A stretch of DNA of 64,000 nt from Candidatus Thermosaccharophagus tengchongensis (GCA_032161105.1 JAVHTD010000002.1); one strand, 5' to 3'. Counted from the first letter of the stretch, positions 10,487 to 30,675 are shown. Numbers and translations are program-made. Notes: generated from the sequence alone by a model not told the origin.

Positions 10487-13400
10487 GTGAGTGCCGCATG
10501 TGAGGATGCTAACGAGGGAGGTGTATCAAGTGTGTGTCAAACCTTCGTTTATAACCCGCTTTGGCGCAAGGTGCGTTTGGCATCCTCACAAAGCGCCCAT
10601 ATGCGCAATGTTCCGAGGAAGAGCCTTCCGCTTTGTGTAGCGGCGCTTGCGTTGATGATGGGCATATCAACTGCTCAGAAGTATACCCTCACCGGGATTG
10701 AATGCGAGCCCGAGTATACGCTCACTTGCACAGTCAAATCAAATGTGGGTTGGGATGCGAAGGCGCAGTTTTACCTCGCTTTCAACTACATTGACGAAAA
10801 GCATTTTTATTACCTCAAACTGAGCCGGCATCCGCAGTCAAAGATGCTGTCCGCGGAGATCTTTAAGGTGAGTCCTGACGGCGAGAGGAAGATCGGCATA
10901 ACTGTCGTTGCATATCGTCCAACAGATCCTCAGGTCAAGCTTGTGCTAAAGCGTCGTCAAATGCGCATCGTCGTCATCTGCAACAATGTGATAGTGGCGA
11001 GGGCTTCAGATGAAGAATACACTTCGGGGCAAATCGGCATCGCGTTTCTCCCCGATGGTGCTTTTCAAGTTAGCGAGTTGCGCATGCAACCTGTTGAAGA
11101 CATCTACTACGGTGATGACTTCACGAGGGCAACTCAGGAGGCTGGCAGTTTTGAATTTGTTGGCGGTGAGTGGAAATTGACCGGCTTGGGGGATCCAACT
11201 GGCAACCCGGATTACAAGGCAAATGCATTTGCGCTGAAGGGCGGTTCAGGCGAGGCTGCCTTCGCAGCCTTCGGATATTGGTTTTGGGATAATTACCTGG
11301 CGAAGGTTTCCGTCAAGCCAGTTCGCGCAAACGCCGTCGGGATATGCGCCTTCTATCAAGACGAGCGAAACTACATCCTGCTGCGCTGGACGAACATACT
11401 ATCAGCCGATGGCGGAAGATGTGAACTTGTTGAGGTTGTTGATGGCAGGGCAAAGGTGCTCGCGTCAACCCCCGCTAACCTCAATAACCCGATTGGGTTC
11501 GTTGAAGGGAGATGGTATTCTTTGAGCCTTTGCGCCACAGACGATTTTCTCATCGGCTCAATAGATGATGTCCCCGTAGTCACCGCTCGCTCAATAAGCT
11601 TTGGGCAGGGCAAAGTCGCACTTTATGTTGATGGGTGCAAGGAAGCCTACTTTGATGACATAGAGGTGAGCACATGGAGGCACTTCCATGATGACTTCAT
11701 CAGCCGTTCTCTCTCGGATTGGAAAGTTTGGGACGGCATGTGGATGATCAAAGGTGGCGTTGTGAATGGGCAAGGTAAGGTGGCATACTTAGCCACGGGC
11801 ACGAGGGGTTGGTTCAACTATGAAGCATCGGCTTCTGTGGCATGGATTAATGGGGCAGTCGGTATAGCCTTCCTCTGCCAAGACAAAAATAGGCATTACC
11901 TTATGCGGTGCCTCCCGAGAGGCGATGAAGCCATCGTGACGCTGTCGCTCGTTGAGAATGGCAACTTGCGTGTGCTTTCAACCGGGAGGGCTAAACCGTG
12001 GGATGGAAACAAATGGCACATGCTTAAAGTGGTCGCCAAGGATTACGGTGTGCTGGAGGCATTCGTTGATGGACACATTGTTACGCGGGCGTTTGATGTG
12101 TCTATCAGGAGCGGCGGCATCGCTCTGTATTGCGAGGGCAGCGCAAACTTCGGTGATGTGTGGGTGTATTTCCTTGAGCCAAGATACAAGGAGCCGCCAG
12201 TTGCAAGACAGTTCATCAAAGAGGAATACATGCTCTCATGGGCTACAAGCAGGGGCATGTGGAGTGTCAGTCAAAGCGACGGTTGGTTCACATACTGGTG
12301 CAATGGACGGTTCTATGGTGATGGCAAAAAGTTTGGCGAGACCGAAATTGAGTTTGACTGGCTGCGAGCCTTGCAATATTGCAGGGAGCTTGAGTTCTCA
12401 TTTGGGGCAAGCGGGAGGGAATTTAACAGCGGCGCACGATTGAAGATTTCACAGCTTGACCATCCACTGCAGATTCGCTTCGTCATACAGCGCGGCGATA
12501 ATGTGCTTTCCCAAAGTGATTGGAAGGGCAGTCGTGATCATAAGGGGAGTTTGCTCGTGCGCTTAATAGCTTCTTCAGGATACATTGTCGTATTGGTGGA
12601 AGGCGAGCCCGTCATTCACGCCTTATTTGATGATTGGCTTTCTGGCAACGAACTCGCTATAAGGGTTAGCGGACGCCCGATTGACATCACGCTGTTTAAG
12701 TTGCGCCCGTCAAATTTGATTGACACAACCTTCTGGCGTGCCCCGGTTGAATTTTATCCGGTGCGAGGGACTTGGGATATTGTCCCGCGATGGCCGTGTG
12801 AAGTTGATTGGTCTTGGTTTGGTGGGCTTGAGGATAGGGTGCCGGTTGTGTGGACGAAGCTCAGGTTTATCGGTGACTTGGTGATAGAGTTCTATGGGAA
12901 CATCGGAATGGACTTGCCAAAGGAACCGGGATACAGCCGTCCAAGCGACATCAACATCTCGTTTTGTGGTGACGGGATTAACTTAAACAGCGGCTACTCT
13001 TTCATCTACTCAGGTTGGGATAATTCCCGCAGCGCGCTGCTCAAGGGTGACAGAGCGCTCTCTGAGAGCACACAACACCATTTTCTCTTCCCGCACAACC
13101 ACAACTTCTCGTTCCATCAGCGTTGGTTTTACATCCGCATTGAGAAGGTGGGCACGCAGATAAGATGCTATGTCAATTCGCCCGAGACGAAGAGCGAAGA
13201 GCTCGTCTGTCATGTCACCGATAACAATGTGCTTCCTGGTGGGCATATCGCTCTTTGGAGCTATCACAACATACTTCTCGTTGCTCGCCTGCGAATTTGG
13301 TATGAGCAATGCAAGCCATCCCTTGATTACATCGGTCTTTTGAAGCCATTGGCGGTGGCGCGGAGGCAAAAGCAGGAACTCGCTCAGGTCGCATCGCAAG

Positions 13401-21652: not shown

Positions 21653-22840
21653 GTGATCTTTGTCGTGCTTGACTTTGCGCAACTCAGGCGGCAGATGAGC
21701 GAAATGGCTTTAGAGCAAGCTGCGCGCCGCGAGGACATTGCTGCAAGGTCGAAGAAGGCATCCTCAGTGCTAAAGCAGTGGGCTGTGTCTTGGGAGGAGG
21801 TGTTGAGGAAGGTTGAGGCGAGCAGGACATCGTGGCTGCTTGCAAGACCGGTGAATGTGCTTGATTTTAAAATGCATGTGGACGAACCCAAGCGCCCGCT
21901 CACTGTCTTAGCAAGCGATGGCTCTCAAATTTTTCCGGACAAGCATGAAGTGGCATTATGCTACCTGATCAACATTGGCTTGGTGGCGCTTCACTATGGC
22001 GTTGGCGAACCGCCAATGATGCGGTGCTACCCGCTGCTCTACTACCGCGAGGAAGATCTCTATGAGCGTTGGGGCGGGAGGAAAGTTCTGGTCAACCATG
22101 ACATAGCTTCAGCGAAGCGTCAGCTCCTTGAGATTGAAACGCTCGCCGACACTGCTTGTTCGCTCGGAGGGAAGCAAGATAAGGTGGCTTTAGTTGATGG
22201 CTCACTCATACTTTGGCGGTTGGAGGGGATGCCGGGTGACTTCGCTGACGGAGTCCTCAAAAGGTTTTTAGCTGCACTTGATAGGTTCAGGGAAGAGGGC
22301 ATCCCGATTGCTGGCTACATTAGCTCTCCGAGGTCAACGGATGTGGTGAACACACTTAAGGTGTGCATCTGCCCTTATGCGCAAGCCGATTGCGATAAAT
22401 GCGAGTATAGGTGTGGAGATGAAATTCCGCCATGTTCATGCATTGATGGTGTAACCGATGCGCTGGTGTTCAGGCATCTCCTTTCAAAGGGTGAGCACAC
22501 TCAGCCATTTTGTAGCTCGTCCAAGATACTTGAGCGTTACGGTGAGCACGCTGTCAGATTTGTTTACCTCAATGTTGGGTATGAGGTTGCGAGGGTTGAG
22601 GTTCCGTGCTGGATTGCAAGCGATGATGCATTGCTAAGGCTTGTCTTGGCGACGGTTTTTGAGCAAGCGCAAAAGGGCAACGGCTATCCGGTTGTGCTTT
22701 CCGAAGCGCATGAGCGTGCCGTCATTCGCAGCAATGAGCGTGAGTTCTTCTTCAGGATGCTTGAGGAGACATTCGTTCGGCACAACATTAGGGTGGGCAT
22801 GTCACTCAAGATGCTCGCAAAGCGTGCGCCGGGCATTTGA
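21653..22840 (+). CDS. nurA: NurA-family DNA double-strand-break repair nuclease
   Basis: ASDGSQ, LVDGSL, ARVEVP and GYPVVLSEAHERAVI motifs. Confidence 0.85.
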   Translation: MIFVVLDFAQLRRQMSEMALEQAARREDIAARSKKASSVLKQWAVSWEEVLRKVEASRTSWLLARPVNVLDFKMHVDEPKRPLTVLASDGSQIFPDKHEVALCYLINIGLVALHYGVGEPPMMRCYPLLYYREEDLYERWGGRKVLVNHDIASAKRQLLEIETLADTACSLGGKQDKVALVDGSLILWRLEGMPGDFADGVLKRFLAALDRFREEGIPIAGYISSPRSTDVVNTLKVCICPYAQADCDKCEYRCGDEIPPCSCIDGVTDALVFRHLLSKGEHTQPFCSSSKILERYGEHAVRFVYLNVGYEVARVEVPCWIASDDALLRLVLATVFEQAQKGNGYPVVLSEAHERAVIRSNEREFFFRMLEETFVRHNIRVGMSLKMLAKRAPGI

Positions 22841-22870: not shown

Positions 22871-25405
22871 GTGATGGATGGGTTAAGAGAAAGGGCAATT
22901 TCAATTGGGGGTGATGAACTGCGGAGCATCATTTATCGTCTCATCCTGCCAAAGGTGCAAAAGGCGGGCAGGTATATCGGCGGCGAGGTTAATTGCGTTG
23001 TCAAATGTGGCAATCCGATTTTGCGCATTGCAATCGCCTTCCCAGACCTTTACGAAGTTGGGATGTCAAGCACTGGCATGGGCATCATTTACCACACATT
23101 GAATGAACTTGGTGGAGTGCAGGCGGAAAGGGTCTTTTCACCTTGGGTTGATATGGAGGCATTGCTTCGTTCATACAACCTCCCGTTGTATGGCTTAGAG
23201 ACATTTACGCCGCTCAAGCAATTTGATGCCATTGGTTTTTCACTGGCGTATGAGTTGCACGGGACAAACATCCTCCAGATGCTTGACCTCTCTGGGATTC
23301 CGCTGCTTTCTCGCGAGCGCGGTGATGATGACCCATTGGTAATTGCTGGTGGATGCGTTGTTGTCAATCCCGAACCATTCGCCGAGTTCGTTGATGCCTT
23401 TTGCATCGGTGATGGCGAGGAGCTCGCAGCCGAGCTTGCTGAGGGGCTTATCCGAACGAAAGGCTTGCCGAGGATGAAGCGGCTTGAAAGGCTTGCATGC
23501 ATTGAGGGCGTGTATGTGCCGATGCTGCACGAGGTTGAGGAGACCGAAAGCGGCATGCTGGTAGTCAAAGGTGCTGGCAGGGAGGTGCGAATCAAGAGGC
23601 GCGTTGTTTGCGATCTGGACAGCGCGCCATTCCCGACAAAGCCGGTTGTGCCGTGGATTGAGACAGTGCATGATCGCGCAAACATTGAGGTGTTCAGGGG
23701 ATGCACGAGGGGATGCAGGTTTTGCCAAGCCGGAATGGTGACGAGACCGGTGAGGGAAAGGAGTGTTGACAAGCTTGTTGAGCAAGCGAATGCGGTGGCG
23801 GTGAACACGGGTTATGATGAAATCGGCTTGCTATCGCTTAACACATACGACTACAGCCACCTGAATGAGCTTGTGAGCGAGCTGCTGATGGGTGAGGTGC
23901 GCCTTTTCCTTTCAATGCCGTCGTCACGCATGGACTCATTCAACATTTCAATTGCGAGACTCGTGCACGAGGTCAGGAAGGGCGGACTTACATTTGCCCC
24001 AGAAGCCGGCAGCGAGCGCCTGAGGCGCGTAATCAACAAGCCAATAAGCGATGGCGAAATCTTTGAGCTGCTTAAGCAGGTCTATTCCAGCGGTTGGGAT
24101 TTGGTGAAGCTCTATTTCATGGTTGGGTTGCCGACGGAAACGGATGAGGATGTGAATGCGATCGCTGAAATGTGCAATGACATTGCGAGGATGGCGCGCT
24201 CGGTGAACAGGCGTGCGAAGTTGCATGTCTCTGTTTCCATCTTTGTTCCAAAGCCGCATACGCCGTTTCAATGGGAGAGGCAAATTGGGCTTGACGAGAG
24301 TCTGCGAAAGAGAAGCCTTTTGCTCAAGCGCATCAGAGAACGCAACTTGAGCCTGAAGATGCATGACTATCGCATGAGCTTCCTTGAGGGCGTCTTCAGC
24401 CGCGGCGATAGGCGTCTTTGCTCGGTCCTGCTTGAAGCATACTTGCGCGGGTGCAGGTTTGATGGATGGACAGAGCACCTCAACTGGGATGGGTGGATGC
24501 GCTCATTTGAAGCTGCTGGTGTTGACCCACACCGTTACCTGCGCGAGCGTTCCTTCAATGAGCCCCTGCCGTGGGAGCACATTGAGACACATTTGAACAA
24601 GCATTTCCTTTTGGAGGAGCGCCAGAGGGCGCTCAAAGGTGAAGTGACTGCAGATTGCAGGATTGGTGGGTGCAACAAGTGTGGTGTTAATACGATTGTG
24701 CCATATGCATGTGCTAAGTCAACCCAAATTTATGCGAGTGCGCCGCAGCGTGATGTGGCACACAAATTTAAGTCAGCCGTTGAGGCTGTTAGGACGCGCA
24801 AGGCGATTGAGCCAGTTCAGCGCATACGGTTGCGATGGACGAAGCTCGGTAAGCTGCGCTTCCTGTCGCATATTGAGATGGTAAGAGCGCTCTGCAGGGG
24901 CATACAGCGTGCTGGGATAAAGGTGTCATACTCTCGCGGCTTTAATCCCAAGCCGAGGTTCTCCTTTGGGTTTGCCTTGCAGGTCGGAATTGAGAGTGAG
25001 GCTGAATATGCGGATGTCTGGCTTGATGAATGGGTCTCGCCACACGAGTTTATGCGATTGTGCAATGAGCATCTTCCAGATGGGTGTAGCGTGCTTGAAG
25101 CTATAACTGTGCCTCTGAATGCCCCGCCGTTTGCACCATTCATTGCCGTATCGGTTTATGAAGCATTTGAGCCATCCGCTTTTGACTGCGCCACCTCGCG
25201 CCTCCCATGCTGTGCTCCCATCTTGCGCTTTGAACTCCCAGAGGGACAGCACGATCGCGTTCGCCCGCTTGATTACCTCAAAGCCGCACTCAAGCTCACC
25301 GATGAGGAGGCGCTCCAAATCAGGATAATCAAGCGAGCCACACTTTGCAGGGTTAATAACATGCTCCTATCGCCGATGGCTCTCCTCAAGTCAGTTAATC
25401 ATTAG
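22871..25405 (+). CDS. B12-binding radical SAM protein (TIGR03960-type) fused to a DUF2344/TIGR03936 domain
   Basis: FPDLYEVGMS, RGCTRGCRFCQAG, TFAPEAGSERLR and PKPHTPFQW motifs; C-terminal FLSH...GFNPKPR. Confidence 0.92.
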   Translation: MMDGLRERAISIGGDELRSIIYRLILPKVQKAGRYIGGEVNCVVKCGNPILRIAIAFPDLYEVGMSSTGMGIIYHTLNELGGVQAERVFSPWVDMEALLRSYNLPLYGLETFTPLKQFDAIGFSLAYELHGTNILQMLDLSGIPLLSRERGDDDPLVIAGGCVVVNPEPFAEFVDAFCIGDGEELAAELAEGLIRTKGLPRMKRLERLACIEGVYVPMLHEVEETESGMLVVKGAGREVRIKRRVVCDLDSAPFPTKPVVPWIETVHDRANIEVFRGCTRGCRFCQAGMVTRPVRERSVDKLVEQANAVAVNTGYDEIGLLSLNTYDYSHLNELVSELLMGEVRLFLSMPSSRMDSFNISIARLVHEVRKGGLTFAPEAGSERLRRVINKPISDGEIFELLKQVYSSGWDLVKLYFMVGLPTETDEDVNAIAEMCNDIARMARSVNRRAKLHVSVSIFVPKPHTPFQWERQIGLDESLRKRSLLLKRIRERNLSLKMHDYRMSFLEGVFSRGDRRLCSVLLEAYLRGCRFDGWTEHLNWDGWMRSFEAAGVDPHRYLRERSFNEPLPWEHIETHLNKHFLLEERQRALKGEVTADCRIGGCNKCGVNTIVPYACAKSTQIYASAPQRDVAHKFKSAVEAVRTRKAIEPVQRIRLRWTKLGKLRFLSHIEMVRALCRGIQRAGIKVSYSRGFNPKPRFSFGFALQVGIESEAEYADVWLDEWVSPHEFMRLCNEHLPDGCSVLEAITVPLNAPPFAPFIAVSVYEAFEPSAFDCATSRLPCCAPILRFELPEGQHDRVRPLDYLKAALKLTDEEALQIRIIKRATLCRVNNMLLSPMALLKSVNH

Positions 25406-25444
25406 ACTTATTGTGCCATATCTTTTTGCTCTGACGCTGCTACC
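25403..25444 (+). repeat. Left inverted repeat (42 bp including terminal TA)
   Basis: TAGACTTATTGTGCCATATCTTTTTGCTCTGACGCTGCTACC; its reverse complement matches 29244-29285 at 37/42. Confidence 0.92.
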
Positions 25445-27911
25445 GTGAAGATAAGCGCACTACATAATACTTTGACTTTAGGTCAGGTGGCAAATCCCGT
25501 TCCTTGCTTAGTAACATAATCTGCATTCCATGTTCAGTCGCAAGCCATTGGCAAACTTGTATCATACCACGCACTCGTTCCCTATCAAGGTTGGCGAATG
25601 GCTCATCCAGCAGGATGAACGGTTTTCCGCTCGTCAAGCGCTTTGCCAGCGCAATTCGTGCCGCAAAGTAAAGTGGGTCACGCACACCAGGATTCATCTC
25701 GTGCTCCTCAAGGACATCCCCTTTCTCTGGATGCACCAAGCTGAAGCATTGCTTTTCTGGAATGTAACGCACTTCGCTGTATCTGCCACCAGTGATTTGC
25801 TTAAGCAGTTCGCCCATCTCTTTGGTTAATTCATCTGCCAATTCCTTGAAAAGCTGCTCTCGCACTTTTGGCAGCAGTTCCTCTAAGGCTCGCAGGACTT
25901 TTTCCCTGTGCTCCAAAGCTGCCTTTCTTGCCCTCAATTCCTCCACTATTTCCTCTTCGGCGCTAACCTGCTCAGCAGTCGGCAACCTCACCAACTCGCC
26001 CTCCAAACGCGCTACCTCTTTGCTTACCTTGCTGATTTCTTCCCGTAACTCCTTGCACTTCCTTTCACGCTGTTGCAACTCCCGTTTCAGTTTTTCCTCC
26101 GACAATTCAGCTAACTCCTCATGCTGCTGCTTCAGCTTTTCCACCTCGCGTTGCAAGGTTTGAACCTCCCGCCGAGCTTCGCTCAGCTTTTCCTCAAGTT
26201 CGTTCAAATTTGACGCATCCTGCCCCTTCAAGATAGCGTTAAATTCACCTTGCTTTTCACTCAATTCCTGCAATAGCTTATCGCGATTTTGGCGCTTTTT
26301 CTCCAGTTCCTGCTCCCGTCGCACTAACCCTTTGCGATCGGTAGCGTATTCTCGCATCCCTTCTAATTCTTTTTCCAATTCCTTCGCCCGCTCATCCAAC
26401 TTTTCCCACTCCGCTCTTAGGGACGCTTCGTCTCGTCCTGCCAGAATTGCCTTCTGCTCTCTCTCCAATTTATCTCGCTCATCCCACAGCTCTTCCAGTT
26501 GCTCCAATTTCAGCTCTAATGAACTCTCGTCATCTGCGTCATACTGCTGCATTAAAGCGTTTAACTCACAACAGATGTTATCCATTTGCTCCTGTGCGCG
26601 GTCCTGTATGCTCGCGTTCAAGGTAACCCAATTGCCAATTTGCAAGACCAAGTGCTGCCTCGCTCTATCCTGGTAGCTACCTCCAGCCTGAATCGGCGCT
26701 TCAACTGTTGGCTCACCGTCGCGTTCCACCCGCAAGACGACATCTTGCTGCGCTTGTATTTGAAATGCCAAAGCTCGTTCCTCTTGAGACTCCTCAAGAG
26801 TTTTTCTGCGTTCCAATAGGCGCTCAAGCTTCTTTCTGGCTTGACGCACTTGCTGCAGTGTAGTGTCCCTGAGCTGCTCCTTCAATTCGCCAAGTTTTTC
26901 TCTCACCTCGTTCAATTGCTCTATGCGTTTGCCGAGCTCATCTCTTTCTCTCTTCACTCGTTCCAGCTCCTCAGCCTTCTCCACATATTGTCGCCGCTGT
27001 TCTACTTCGTTCTCAAGTTGCCTCACCTCTCGGTCAGCATGCTTAAGTTCGGGCTTAAGCGCTTTTATCTCATCATCCAGTTGACGAGCCCTATCAATCG
27101 CCCTTTTTATTCCCAGCTCATCCTTCTCCGCCTCACTCAGCATATGCATAGCTTCAATTAGCGGACGCAATGTCTCCAGCCTCTGTTCAGCCTCCTTAAG
27201 CCCCCTTTGCATTTCATCCATTTTCACCCTCAGCTCTGCCAATTTTTCCTCCTTCCCTTCGCGCTCGGCAATCTGCGCCTTTAGCTCCTTAAGCGTTTTT
27301 TCCTGTTCCTCCAATTCCCTTTCCACTTGTGCTATTTCCCCCGTTGGTCTTCCATGCACTTCACGGCGCATTCTGCGCCGCTCTTCGGTCACCTGATTTT
27401 GCAGTCGGTCCAATGGAATTCCTGCCCCAAACACACCCTCTAAAGCAGCAGACAATCCTTCCACTTCAAGGCGCCCCAACTCCTCCTGCTTCACGCAAAT
27501 GGTTGCCAATGCTTCATGCTTTGTGCTCAAACCCAATGCCTCTTCAATCTTCTGCTGCACCCTTTGATGCCCCCGTAGCCTTTCCTTGCCCGTGTCCAAC
27601 TCAACGCGACCTTCCTCAAAGTCCTTGCGCAGTCGCCATGTTTCTCCATTCACCTCAAGCTCCATTTCAATGGTGAAGTATTCGCTGGCATCCCACGACC
27701 GCTCCCGCAAGATTGCCTGAGCCGTTGTTCTCGCCTGCTCAAATAGTCCAATCAATATCGCCAACGCAATCGTGCTCTTACCCACATCGTTGTCGCCACA
27801 GATGATGTTAAGTCCATCTTTAAGCACAAGCCCTTTGTCGCCAAATCGCTCCAACACTCTGTTGCGGAAGTTCACCGCCTTGATTCTTTTAATCGCTACC
27901 CTGCTCGCCAT
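25440..27911 (-). CDS. Rad50/SbcC-like (YhaN/AAA_27-type) SMC-family ATPase
   Basis: Walker A GDNDVGKST, Q-loop CVKQ, long coiled coil, Walker B/D-loop ILLDEPFANLD; signature degenerate (MNPG). Confidence 0.88.
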   Translation of the reverse strand: MASRVAIKRIKAVNFRNRVLERFGDKGLVLKDGLNIICGDNDVGKSTIALAILIGLFEQARTTAQAILRERSWDASEYFTIEMELEVNGETWRLRKDFEEGRVELDTGKERLRGHQRVQQKIEEALGLSTKHEALATICVKQEELGRLEVEGLSAALEGVFGAGIPLDRLQNQVTEERRRMRREVHGRPTGEIAQVERELEEQEKTLKELKAQIAEREGKEEKLAELRVKMDEMQRGLKEAEQRLETLRPLIEAMHMLSEAEKDELGIKRAIDRARQLDDEIKALKPELKHADREVRQLENEVEQRRQYVEKAEELERVKRERDELGKRIEQLNEVREKLGELKEQLRDTTLQQVRQARKKLERLLERRKTLEESQEERALAFQIQAQQDVVLRVERDGEPTVEAPIQAGGSYQDRARQHLVLQIGNWVTLNASIQDRAQEQMDNICCELNALMQQYDADDESSLELKLEQLEELWDERDKLEREQKAILAGRDEASLRAEWEKLDERAKELEKELEGMREYATDRKGLVRREQELEKKRQNRDKLLQELSEKQGEFNAILKGQDASNLNELEEKLSEARREVQTLQREVEKLKQQHEELAELSEEKLKRELQQRERKCKELREEISKVSKEVARLEGELVRLPTAEQVSAEEEIVEELRARKAALEHREKVLRALEELLPKVREQLFKELADELTKEMGELLKQITGGRYSEVRYIPEKQCFSLVHPEKGDVLEEHEMNPGVRDPLYFAARIALAKRLTSGKPFILLDEPFANLDRERVRGMIQVCQWLATEHGMQIMLLSKERDLPPDLKSKYYVVRLSSR

Positions 27912-29058
27912 CTCCCTCACCCCCTATGGCTTGCAAGCGATTCAACCCATCTATTGCGGCTTCAAGCCAAACGCGCTTTTCATCCTCACTGGAAGCAGCG
28001 TCATAGCGCTCCTTTGCCATGCGCACTAATTGACCCGCAAAGGTGCTTGCAGGATAACGACGCAGAAGCCTTCTCCAATCCATGTGTTGCAGCGCTTGTC
28101 GGTCATCCAATTCAACCCAAAAGAATGCCTGTGCCAACTCACCCCCTTCGCTGCACCATTCATGAACTTCCCGTAGTTGCTCTGGTTGGAAAATCCCACT
28201 TAACTGGACAGTGAGCAGTTTATGCTCCGCATCTGGAAAGCGTTTGATGATGGCGCTCGCCCCGCGACCAATATCCTTTTCCGTCATAGACCATACAACC
28301 TCTTCATAGGCACCGATTTCTTTGGGCGTCACCTTAACTTGTTTGCCATCCCATTCCACCAATGCCACTTTACCTTTGCCGTCGGGTGGAGCAAAGGACA
28401 GATATTCCAGCGCACCTGGATAGACTGCTACTTTGCCATCAACTCGTTGCGTCAACCATTTGTGCCAATGCCCTAATGCGAGGTAGTGGAATGGGCTGCG
28501 AGCGATTTCGTCTCGCTCAATTGGAAAGTCAGGTTCGCTCACTCCACCAAAGCGCAGTGACCCATGCAGCAATGCCACGAGAAAATCCCCCTGAGGAATT
28601 TGAAGCTGCTCCATCACTTGACGCAGCGGATGATCTATACCGTCTTTATCTGGGCATGCCCATCCAGCGACTACCAAAGTGCCGCGCTTTACTTTCCAAG
28701 GCACAACATCCGTTTCAACAAACACAACTGCATTGGATGGCACACGGTTGCTTTGAAGCAACCGTTCCCAAAGTGACCCTTTGCCTGAATGGTCATGATT
28801 GCCAGGGCAGATGAACACTGGTGTTGGCTTTAACGCTTCAAGCATGCGCATCACATGACGGATAGTATCAGCACTTATTATAGGCGCATCAAACAGGTCG
28901 CCGCTGATCAACACGGCGTCAACATCCTCATTTTGTGCCAAGTCCATCGCCCGCTTAAGCGCCTCTAATACAGCTTCTCGCAATTGCCTACCTCGCTCCG
29001 TGCCCAATTTTCTGAATGACGCTCCCACATGCACATCCGCTAAATGCAATAACTTCAT
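27889..29058 (-). CDS. Mre11/SbcD-like (YhaO-type) metallophosphoesterase DNA nuclease
   Basis: All five motifs present: ADVH, GDLFD, GNHD, LHG, GHWH; overlaps the ATPase start. Confidence 0.92.
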   Translation of the reverse strand: MKLLHLADVHVGASFRKLGTERGRQLREAVLEALKRAMDLAQNEDVDAVLISGDLFDAPIISADTIRHVMRMLEALKPTPVFICPGNHDHSGKGSLWERLLQSNRVPSNAVVFVETDVVPWKVKRGTLVVAGWACPDKDGIDHPLRQVMEQLQIPQGDFLVALLHGSLRFGGVSEPDFPIERDEIARSPFHYLALGHWHKWLTQRVDGKVAVYPGALEYLSFAPPDGKGKVALVEWDGKQVKVTPKEIGAYEEVVWSMTEKDIGRGASAIIKRFPDAEHKLLTVQLSGIFQPEQLREVHEWCSEGGELAQAFFWVELDDRQALQHMDWRRLLRRYPASTFAGQLVRMAKERYDAASSEDEKRVWLEAAIDGLNRLQAIGGEGDGEQGSD

Positions 29059-29243
29059 TTGCCTCTCCTCCCCCTTGACAACCTTTCCCTTTCAAAATCG
29101 GGGCGGGCTTTTTTGAGAACGCTCATGAGTTCCTCAAGGGCTTTTAGAGAAAGCCCAGCAAAGCCACGAAAGATAGTGGGAGATTTTTGCTCTTTTCAGG
29201 TTCAATATGGTCACTTTCGCCCCTTGCATGGTCGGGTTATAAT

Positions 29244-29285
29244 GGTAGCAATGTCAGGGCAAAAAGATATGGCGCAATAAGTTTA
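29244..29285 (-). repeat. Right inverted repeat (42 bp including terminal TA)
   Basis: GGTAGCAATGTCAGGGCAAAAAGATATGGCGCAATAAGTTTA. Confidence 0.92.
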
Positions 29286-29305
29286 TTCGCAGGGGCACTG
29301 AGCTT

Positions 29306-30499
29306 TCATTCCTCATCACTGGATTGCCTTCGTGGTGAGCGCAAGAATGTGGGCGTGTCTATATCCTCCATCCCCTCCTCCAGCTCTTTGAGCAGCTCGT
29401 CAACTCTGCGCCTTGCCCCAACCCGCTCCACACTCGCAGGTGGAGCTGTCCCGCCAGTTAGCACTTGCTCTTGCCTTCCCTCGCGGGCAACTTTCTGTTG
29501 GCTGCGTTGCCTTTCCAATTGTTCCCTACTTTCCATCTCTGTGCCTGCCCCAAACCCGGTGGCTATAAGCGTTAGGCGCACCTCATCCATAATTTGCTCA
29601 TCCAATGCTATGCCTATGCGCATGTCTAACCCTTCGGTGCCACACGCATCCTTGATGATCCTCATCACCTCATGCAGTTCCGGCGGCGAAAAATCCGCTG
29701 GTGCAATTATATTCATCAGCCCTCTCGTTGCGCCCTCAACTGAATGCTCAAGCAGCGGGTTTGAGATGGCATTTCTTGCAGCCTCAATATGCCGTTCGTC
29801 GCCTTTCCCAATGCCTATCCCGATCAATGCCACGCCCGCGTTCGTGAGGACACTCCTCACATCGGCAAAGTCAATGTTTATGTAGCCCGGAATCGTGATG
29901 AGGTCACTTATGCCCTGCACAGCTTGTCTTAGGACATCATCAACCATTGCAAATGCATCCTTGAGAGTCATGCGCTTGTCAGAGAGCTCCCATATCCTGT
30001 CATTTGGTATGGTGATGATGGCATCCACAACCTGCCTCAATTGTTTTATGCCCTCGTCAGCTATCCGTGCTTTCCCTATTCCCTCTTCGGCAAACGGCTT
30101 TGTCACCACAGCGACGGTGAGCGCTCCAAGTTCACGAGCCACCTGTGCCACTATGGGGGACGCTCCTGTTCCTGTGCCGCCGCCCATTCCAGCTGCGATG
30201 AAGACCATGTCCGGGCGTTCAAGCGCCTCGACTATCGCATCTCTATCTTGTTCAGCTGCTTGTCTGCCGATCTCCGGGTTGCCACCAGTCCCAAGCCCAC
30301 CTGTTAGGCGTTGACCAATCTGGACTCTGTTTTCGGTGAGCGATTTAGCTAAGTCCTGAACATCGGTGTTGATCACGATGAAGTCGACTCCCTTTAATCC
30401 CCACTCAATCATGTGATTGATGGCATTACCACCACCGCCTCCCACGCCGACCACTTTGATAATCGCGCCCTGCTTTGAGGCATTCATCATCCTCTCCAT
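29306..30499 (-). CDS. ftsZ: Cell division protein FtsZ
   Basis: IKVVGVGGGGGNA, AGMGGGTGTG, INIDFADV and C-terminal DTPTFLR motifs. Confidence 0.98.
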   Translation of the reverse strand: MERMMNASKQGAIIKVVGVGGGGGNAINHMIEWGLKGVDFIVINTDVQDLAKSLTENRVQIGQRLTGGLGTGGNPEIGRQAAEQDRDAIVEALERPDMVFIAAGMGGGTGTGASPIVAQVARELGALTVAVVTKPFAEEGIGKARIADEGIKQLRQVVDAIITIPNDRIWELSDKRMTLKDAFAMVDDVLRQAVQGISDLITIPGYINIDFADVRSVLTNAGVALIGIGIGKGDERHIEAARNAISNPLLEHSVEGATRGLMNIIAPADFSPPELHEVMRIIKDACGTEGLDMRIGIALDEQIMDEVRLTLIATGFGAGTEMESREQLERQRSQQKVAREGRQEQVLTGGTAPPASVERVGARRRVDELLKELEEGMEDIDTPTFLRSPRRQSSDEE

Positions 30500-30675
30500 C
30501 TTCTCGCCCCCTTTGGCATCCTCAATGCCATTTGGCAGTATCACAATACACCCTTTCGCATATCTGTGGCGCGTCATACGGTGATTGCAACGCTCTCACC
30601 TTCAGCGGTTTACTACCATTATGCATCATGGCGAAGCATCATGTCAACCATGCAATTTGACGATAGCAACAGGTA

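Follow-up and report, generated by a model that had tools for sequence, protein, structure and literature searches.

Genes and features at the locus

The 64,000-nucleotide stretch of DNA analysed here (the window; GCA_032161105.1, JAVHTD010000002.1) comes from Candidatus Thermosaccharophagus tengchongensis, a hot-spring bacterium whose relatives belong to the class Fervidibacteria of the Armatimonadota. Between a radical S-adenosylmethionine (SAM) gene and ftsZ it carries an Mre11/Rad50-like nuclease-ATPase gene pair within inverted repeats, which an original prediction, made from the sequence alone, had described as a mobile cassette at a TA target. We followed up this prediction by comparing the host assembly (G000; 97% complete, repeats may be missing) with three congeners, 20 sister-family genomes, 24 class genomes (G000 included) and 251 phylum genomes, as well as with the related loci L106, L107 and L108 and with the sequencing runs X3, X13, X15 and X19, which were compared as contigs and as such drop rare forms. 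The locus is composed as follows, the left and right inverted repeats of an insertion sequence (IS) being denoted IRL and IRR:

22871..25405, plus strand: target gene, a TIGR03960/TIGR03936 radical SAM fusion, four C-terminal residues of which were lost through the insertion
25401..25403, no strand: left copy of the target duplication (ATT; family target consensus A-N-T)
25404..25444, plus strand: left arm, a 41-bp IRL-type stub of an IS5-family element
25440..27911 (27920 with GTG), minus strand: Rad50/SbcC-like ATPase, 823 aa from ATG (826 from GTG at 27920)
27889..29058, minus strand: Mre11/SbcD-like nuclease, a 389-aa metallophosphoesterase with five phosphoesterase motifs present, overlapping the ATPase start
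29059..29072, minus strand: purine-rich ribosome-binding tract, common to a copy of the pair that lacks arms; junction with the transposase stub
29073..29208, minus strand: decayed 5' stub (~45 codons) of an IS5-family HTH_Tnp_4 transposase gene, with ATG changed to ATA and a frameshift
29244..29284, minus strand: right arm, the terminal part of an IS left end (IRL), which runs on into the transposase stub
29285..29287, no strand: right copy of the target duplication (ATT)
29306..30577, minus strand: ftsZ, the other flank, which adjoins the radical SAM gene in congeners

The predicted 42-bp inverted repeat was borne out by recomputation. Positions 25403-25444 and 29244-29285 are complementary at 37 of 42 positions and form the top inverted repeat of the window, and all five mismatches are transitions, for which the chance expectation is ~2e-8. 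The gene calls agree that the repeats enclose two genes, with the ATPase stop inside the left repeat. The element itself spans 25404-29284 (3,881 bp) with ATT on each side, and its GC content of ~50% is the same as that of the flanks. Its left arm not only contains the ATPase stop but also provides a new stop for the radical SAM gene. Comparison of the radical SAM/ftsZ junction among relatives revealed an empty site in 3/3 congeners, where the two genes directly adjoin each other. When 25404-29284 and a single ATT are excised, the radical SAM end reverts to HSQGH-stop, which aligns with the PSQID-stop of G003. The segment is therefore a true insertion, which landed within the last codons of the radical SAM gene and created a new stop. 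A TA target would also keep the radical SAM frame; the frame test alone is not decisive between the two targets, and the IS family is.

The parent insertion sequence and its two left ends

Copies of the repeat do occur elsewhere, and they adjoin the start of a transposase gene. A 24-nt end motif is present six times in G000, in none of the three congeners and in 6/20 sister-family genomes (25 copies in G006), and a reversed-motif control gave no match in 31 genomes. The copies stop sharply at one base and share 150-400 bp inward, which code for the transposase start. One transposase frame encoded by these copies (P0001) matches HTH_Tnp_4 at 46 bits (cut-off 27), and the relatives L072 and L076 carry HTH_Tnp_4 together with DDE_Tnp_4. 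Window positions 29064-29198 align with the P0001 N terminus at 53% identity over 45 codons (E 2.8e-8), and the window stub alone matched no Pfam family. The region had been described as a leader without a transposase; it is indeed true that no functional transposase lies inside, but the leader turns out to be the decayed 5' end of a transposase gene. No match to DDE_Tnp_4 was detected in G000, from whose assembly repeats may be missing, and only decayed IS copies were seen there, on C31, C6 and C39.

Judged by its domains and duplications, the parent element is of the IS5 family (HTH_Tnp_4/DDE_Tnp_4) with a 3-bp target. We take it to belong to the ISL2 group, to which we likewise ascribe the HTH_Tnp_4 plus DDE_Tnp_4 make-up. 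The flanks of the IS ends favour A at -3 (30/45) and T at -1 (36/45), and of the 13 pairs of outward-facing ends at the fetched loci, 7 have 3-bp direct repeats, the window cassette (ATT) included. G000 has 204 loosely matched ends, and among these the cassette is the only outward pair at most 25 kb apart with such a duplication. Because family copies begin AAACTT or AGACTT and duplicate 3 bp, the TA seen at both outer ends, and formerly read as the target, straddles the edge of the element.

True right ends, which lie behind transposase C termini, diverge from left ends after ~13-18 terminal bp. The window arms find their best match in each other (36/41), reach at most 31 with other left ends and at most 22 with right ends, and have private changes in common. 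By these comparisons, both arms are left ends of the IS, not a left/right pair. The unit thus consists of a left end with promoter and transposase stub, the cargo, and a second left end.

Shortened forms of the IS are found in relatives as well. Three short two-ended elements were found among five genomes searched. Elements of miniature size (90-161 bp) that share the terminal motif were seen at L197 and L198 (G006), L228 (G004), L235 and L241 (G003), L251 (G007) and L203 (G013), 6/7 of them with 3-bp duplications. In G000, internally deleted IS copies at C31:1467-2160 and C6:1-336 each have their left end in front of a host gene, namely an open reading frame (ORF) that we presume to be dCTP deaminase-like and an 893-aa ORF. 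Two left ends that are nearly identical and have the same outer flanks (L001; G000 C39:219-373 and 11499-11653) form a 155-bp inverted repeat at contig ends and surround a resistance-nodulation-division (RND) efflux cluster without target duplication, as an invertible segment or an assembly effect would. At L030 and L042 (G008:C20), two shortened left ends lie in direct orientation 2.2 kb apart with 148 inner bases identical. Readings of the repeat as a dif/Xer site, an integron attI site or a Tn3-type end were abandoned once the transposase stub was identified.

Insertion and probable capture of the gene pair

A related copy of the pair lacks the arms. At L108 the nuclease start is 93% identical to the window and matches from 29072 downward only. 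The L108 nuclease gene lies directly behind a 455-aa orphan ORF (L108:589-1956, 37% GC), which in turn follows a seven-repeat clustered regularly interspaced short palindromic repeats (CRISPR) array. Neither Pfam nor PADLOC yielded a family for this ORF, no counterpart was found in the 24 class genomes, and the L108 spacers had no match in G000. The donor lineage could not be fixed from the CRISPR repeat, which matches 12/24 class genomes with at most two mismatches, G000 and G002 exactly. Run X19 covers only 25473-29072, at ~92% identity and with no depth on arms or flanks; at its loose end at 29072 it carries the same upstream ORF end, and it has a differing ATPase tail that recurs in P0128 and P0129, two proteins of armless copies. 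Because the L108/X19 match stops there, with a differing ATPase tail, the captured piece would run from the ribosome-binding tract to the stop codon. At both joints, short similar stretches are present in the armless copy and in the IS. The armless copy is likely of the donor type.

Taken together, we consider it probable that the cassette is a non-autonomous IS5-family (ISL2-like) derivative, in which two left ends captured the Mre11/Rad50-like pair and which was inserted as a unit in trans. Movement in trans had been predicted and gains support from the IS-derived arms and the empty site in all congeners. The two left ends, both from the same IS variant, would have become linked to the gene pair in a Fervidibacteria donor through deletions at short stretches of shared sequence, namely the nuclease ribosome-binding tract and the ATPase stop codon. 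A transposase from elsewhere, requiring no more than the ~13 terminal bases that left and right IS ends have in common, would then have pasted the unit into the radical SAM 3' end, where it would have been retained for its cargo.

Several observations count against this reconstruction. The A-N-T preference makes a matching 3-bp repeat a ~1-in-4 event by chance, and 6/12 of the other outward end pairs are without a 3-bp repeat. The direction from donor to cassette is set by parsimony only, the ribosome-binding tract also resembles the IS, and only 30 letters are visible beyond the ends of the armless copy. Neither a second-site copy of the cassette nor an intact cognate transposase was found in G000, so movement of the unit was not directly observed.

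It is less likely, though conceivable, that the IS alone inserted at ATT and that the gene pair came later by recombination, for example from transforming DNA, using the IS stubs, with the right end overwritten by a left-end copy; the cassette would then never have transposed as a unit. The inner junctions are indeed not transposase cuts, the private changes common to the arms are what copying would yield, and internally deleted copies of the parent IS are common. However, this route needs an additional step in which a right end becomes a left end without disturbing the exact ATT repeat, and the 3-bp duplications around short elements with unconventional end pairs indicate that such units can transpose. 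An invertible segment between site-specific recombination sites is very improbable: two similar sites do lie in inverted orientation, but the arms are IS ends that run on into a transposase gene, no recombinase is adjacent (none was found among the neighbouring window genes, as the prediction had stated), and L106, L107, X3, X13 and X15 present one orientation without a strand-change joint at the arms, albeit in contigs. Least probable of all is the IS630/Tc1-mariner-type cassette at TA to which the prediction had leaned, since the letters TA across both outer boundaries straddle the edge, the family triplets are of the A-N-T form (such as AAT, TAT, AGT and ATT) and the transposase is HTH_Tnp_4/DDE_Tnp_4.

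As to present mobility, L106 and L107 show 99% identity across 9.1 kb, a stretch that extends from the nuclease past the left arm to the flank. The left junction is bridged by runs X3, X13 and X15 and the right junction by X3 and X13. Terminal mismatches number two in the left arm of the window, with a third in L106. No joint skipping the cassette was seen in 4/23 listed sequencing runs, whose contig data cannot show absence. Because no intact transposase was found in the assembly, the other strains seen carry the cassette at the same site and the left arm is drifting, the cassette, as read from these sequences, looks fixed with decaying ends and is now probably immobile.

The nuclease and the ATPase

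The nuclease matches Mre11 structures (PDB 1ii7, E 5e-16). At E<=1e-12 it was detected in 1/24 class genomes, G000 only. No pattern match to its homolog P0002 was found in viral contigs, and no specific PADLOC model matched the nuclease. The ATPase, searched at 1e-15 in the 251 phylum genomes with three candidates scored per genome, was detected in 12/251 and in 0/23 of the other class genomes. Close homologs are few, and the remainder are 20-35% identical. The ratio of nonsynonymous to synonymous substitution rates (dN/dS) is 0.14 both for the cargo against L108 (over 108 codons) and for the ATPase against L106, and by this measure the cargo pair is under purifying selection. The nuclease against L106 gives 0.37, on few (18) changes, which fits this less well.

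The structural model of the ATPase (predicted local distance difference test score, pLDDT, 84) has a Rad50-type head, an antiparallel coiled coil and a predicted six-strand beta domain at residues 381-434, which sits at the coiled-coil tip; 7zr1 was among its best fold matches. A fold search with the arm tip returned helical-hairpin matches only (best Z 9.7, 77 residues) and was uninformative for the beta domain. The ATPase has no CxxC zinc hook, and a central CxxC is present in 2 of the best 150 homologs. Homologs divide into hydrophobic-hairpin forms (21/44 aligned rows reach at least 1.6) and soluble forms, and the best central 19-residue hydropathy of 0.42 places the cassette ATPase, by prediction, among the soluble ones. 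The cargo stayed below all NCBIfam cut-offs. Several homologs carry AAA_27 (PF13514), and the nearest Atlas cluster is 90% AAA_27.

The signature serine is replaced by Asn740. Fervidibacteria copies have Asn at this position and Asp in Walker A, where all 41 aligned distant homologs have Ser and Glu (41/41). According to PMC7247530, a Ser-to-Arg change at the Rad50 signature blocks ATP binding and head dimerisation, and Asn is not among the changes tested there. The Asn signature may thus alter the ATPase activity.

Probable expression of the pair from the insertion sequence

Two promoter-like features lie in and beside the right arm:

29224..29243, plus strand: sigma70-like promoter at the IS left end, facing outward, with a spacer of 8 nt in the window and of 16 nt in runs X3 and X13
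29242..29250, minus strand: inward extended -10-like motif, intact in the right arm, a candidate promoter of the gene pair

The inward motif occurs in 23/38 left ends, and a promoter scan of 29000-29400 called no site. On the strength of the motif, the inward promoter of the IS probably drives both genes. The outward promoter scores at least 9 of 12 in 21/38 left ends, three of which are the cassette's own arms on other hexamers. In the window it points at the end of ftsZ, and its spacer differs from that of X3/X13 by an 8-nt insertion at 29233.

In the fetched loci of G000, G006, G007, G008, G013, G019 and G020, a ribosome site plus an ORF of at least 80 aa within 130 nt outward was found at 17/27 left-end stubs and at 7/43 right ends (Fisher p 9e-5, the copies being non-independent). 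Left-end stubs may be kept as portable promoters.

Function: repair or defence

The host has its own SbcCD, on C14, which is canonical and has a CxxC hook. The presence of this canonical SbcCD supports the predicted accessory, rather than housekeeping, nature of the cargo. From the structural and comparative analysis, the pair most likely forms a complex of the Mre11-Rad50 type that acts like SbcEF. In such a complex the ATPase heads would bind DNA ends or hairpins and gate the metal-dependent nuclease, working beside the host SbcCD, and the beta-strand tip may stand in for the zinc hook as the arm-to-arm contact. Two features of the ATPase sit uneasily with this assignment: it lacks the hydrophobic centre of SbcE, and in the Pfam scan it did not match AAA_27. 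As to what the pair does, we lean towards extra end-processing in repair or transformation.

A competing view, to which we give a smaller though real share, keeps the same origin for the cassette and takes the cargo as a stand-alone anti-phage or anti-plasmid nuclease that senses invader DNA ends or hairpins, with the ATPase motifs tuning the trigger. The patchy spread of the pair and its redundancy with the host SbcCD favour defence, as does the position of an armless copy behind a CRISPR array and a 37% GC orphan ORF. One distant plasmid relative lies among AbiEi/AbiEii, DUF4297-HerA and VWA/PP2C genes, another match (H3) is a candidate for a similar layout, and Lamassu, described in PMC12663957 as derived from SbcCD, provides a precedent. 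In contrast, four of the six inspected plasmid matches (of 13) are lone pairs amid metabolic or housekeeping genes, and the insertion site is no defence island. The PADLOC run returned generic, weak and scattered ATPase and phosphoesterase matches (LmuB at 67 bits, partial) and no specific defence system; at 1e-15 it matched 0/46 neighbour ORFs at eight Armatimonadota loci of distant relatives (103 ORFs called, nine loci). Because these relatives are only 25-35% identical, their neighbourhoods constrain little.

More specifically, and more doubtfully, the pair might be a two-gene anti-phage/anti-plasmid system from an unstudied soluble, hookless branch of Mre11-Rad50 with a beta-domain tip and a lineage-specific Asn. 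It would represent an independent, Lamassu-like shift from repair to defence, moving among Fervidibacteria between CRISPR-adjacent islands and promoter-supplying minimal IS cassettes with two left ends. A role that is neither repair or transformation nor defence seems unlikely.

On a Sphingobium plasmid (L261:5021-14846), AbiEi/AbiEii, Mre11-like, SMC-like, DUF4297, HerA, VWA and PP2C genes stand together in a single run, which makes up a bacterial cluster of the Mre11-Rad50-nuclease-HerA kind amid defence genes. In the window, 2.6 kb separate nurA (21653-22840, plus strand) from the cassette, and C21 has a DUF87 (HerA-type) gene; nurA holds the same position in congeners without the gene pair, and its nearness to the cassette is probably due to chance.

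Relation to known elements and systems

The prediction had put this forward as a candidate for an undescribed system, which overstates the case: architecturally it is a variant of mobile insertion cassettes (MICs) and composite transposons, with a cargo that resembles SbcEF. The cassette is an IS5-derived passenger cassette with an unusual two-left-end layout and unusual cargo. It shares with MICs the IS-derived inverted repeats, the lack of a functional transposase, a target duplication of the family type and an empty site. A usual MIC has one left and one right end. MIC231 of the IS231/IS4 family, as described in PMC6199540, similarly has two IS inverted repeats, passenger genes, no functional transposase and an IS region retained beside the left repeat, and moves in trans; MIC231 elements are 0.7-3 kb, whereas the cassette is IS5-type, 3.9 kb long, keeps part of the transposase frame and has two left ends instead of a left and a right one. 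Like the composite transposons and transporter IS covered in PMC9330008, it has two inverted ends of the same IS around captured genes and IS-borne promoters, but its IS copies are stubs of 41 and 212 bp that encode no transposase. It resembles IS5/ISL2 elements in the HTH_Tnp_4 and DDE_Tnp_4 domains of its relatives, the short terminal repeats and the 3-bp duplication, and differs in that the host genome has remnants only; the ISL2 placement is presumed. The ISL2 examples given in PMC3196728 have 15-23 bp repeats and 275-aa transposases. Nothing on such a cassette was found in the open-access literature.

For the cargo, the closest likeness is to SbcE/SbcF (YhaN/YhaO) of Bacillus subtilis. 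In the account given in PMC2811018, SbcE is hookless with deviant motifs and has a role in break repair and transformation/competence. In both systems an sbcD-like gene immediately precedes the gene of an SbcC-like ATPase that lacks a hook, has deviant motifs and possesses a central domain of its own, and the pair is a second system beside SbcCD. The cassette differs from SbcE/SbcF in the predicted all-beta, non-hydrophobic centre of its ATPase, the signature Asn, the lack of an AAA_27 match and the location in a mobile cassette. On this analysis the pair would work like SbcEF and is not filed as a member, because the hydrophobic-centre test failed and AAA_27 went unmatched. With SbcCD/Mre11-Rad50 it shares the Mre11-type nuclease motifs and the Rad50-type head and coiled coil; unlike them, its ATPase lacks the CxxC hook and the canonical signature serine. 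Compared with Lamassu as presented in PMC12663957, the cassette has no LmuA effector and no separate LmuC gene, and its nuclease matches no LmuA model.

The locus is a well-resolved example of IS remnants capturing genes, in which the parent IS, the junctions, the target duplication, the empty site and an armless copy are all visible. B. subtilis SbcE and SbcF are reported in PMC2811018 to be insoluble on expression in E. coli. As a predicted soluble and probably thermostable hookless SbcEF-like member, the pair could make the biochemistry of this group testable. If it proved defensive, it would be a further conversion of a Mre11-Rad50 machine from repair to immunity.

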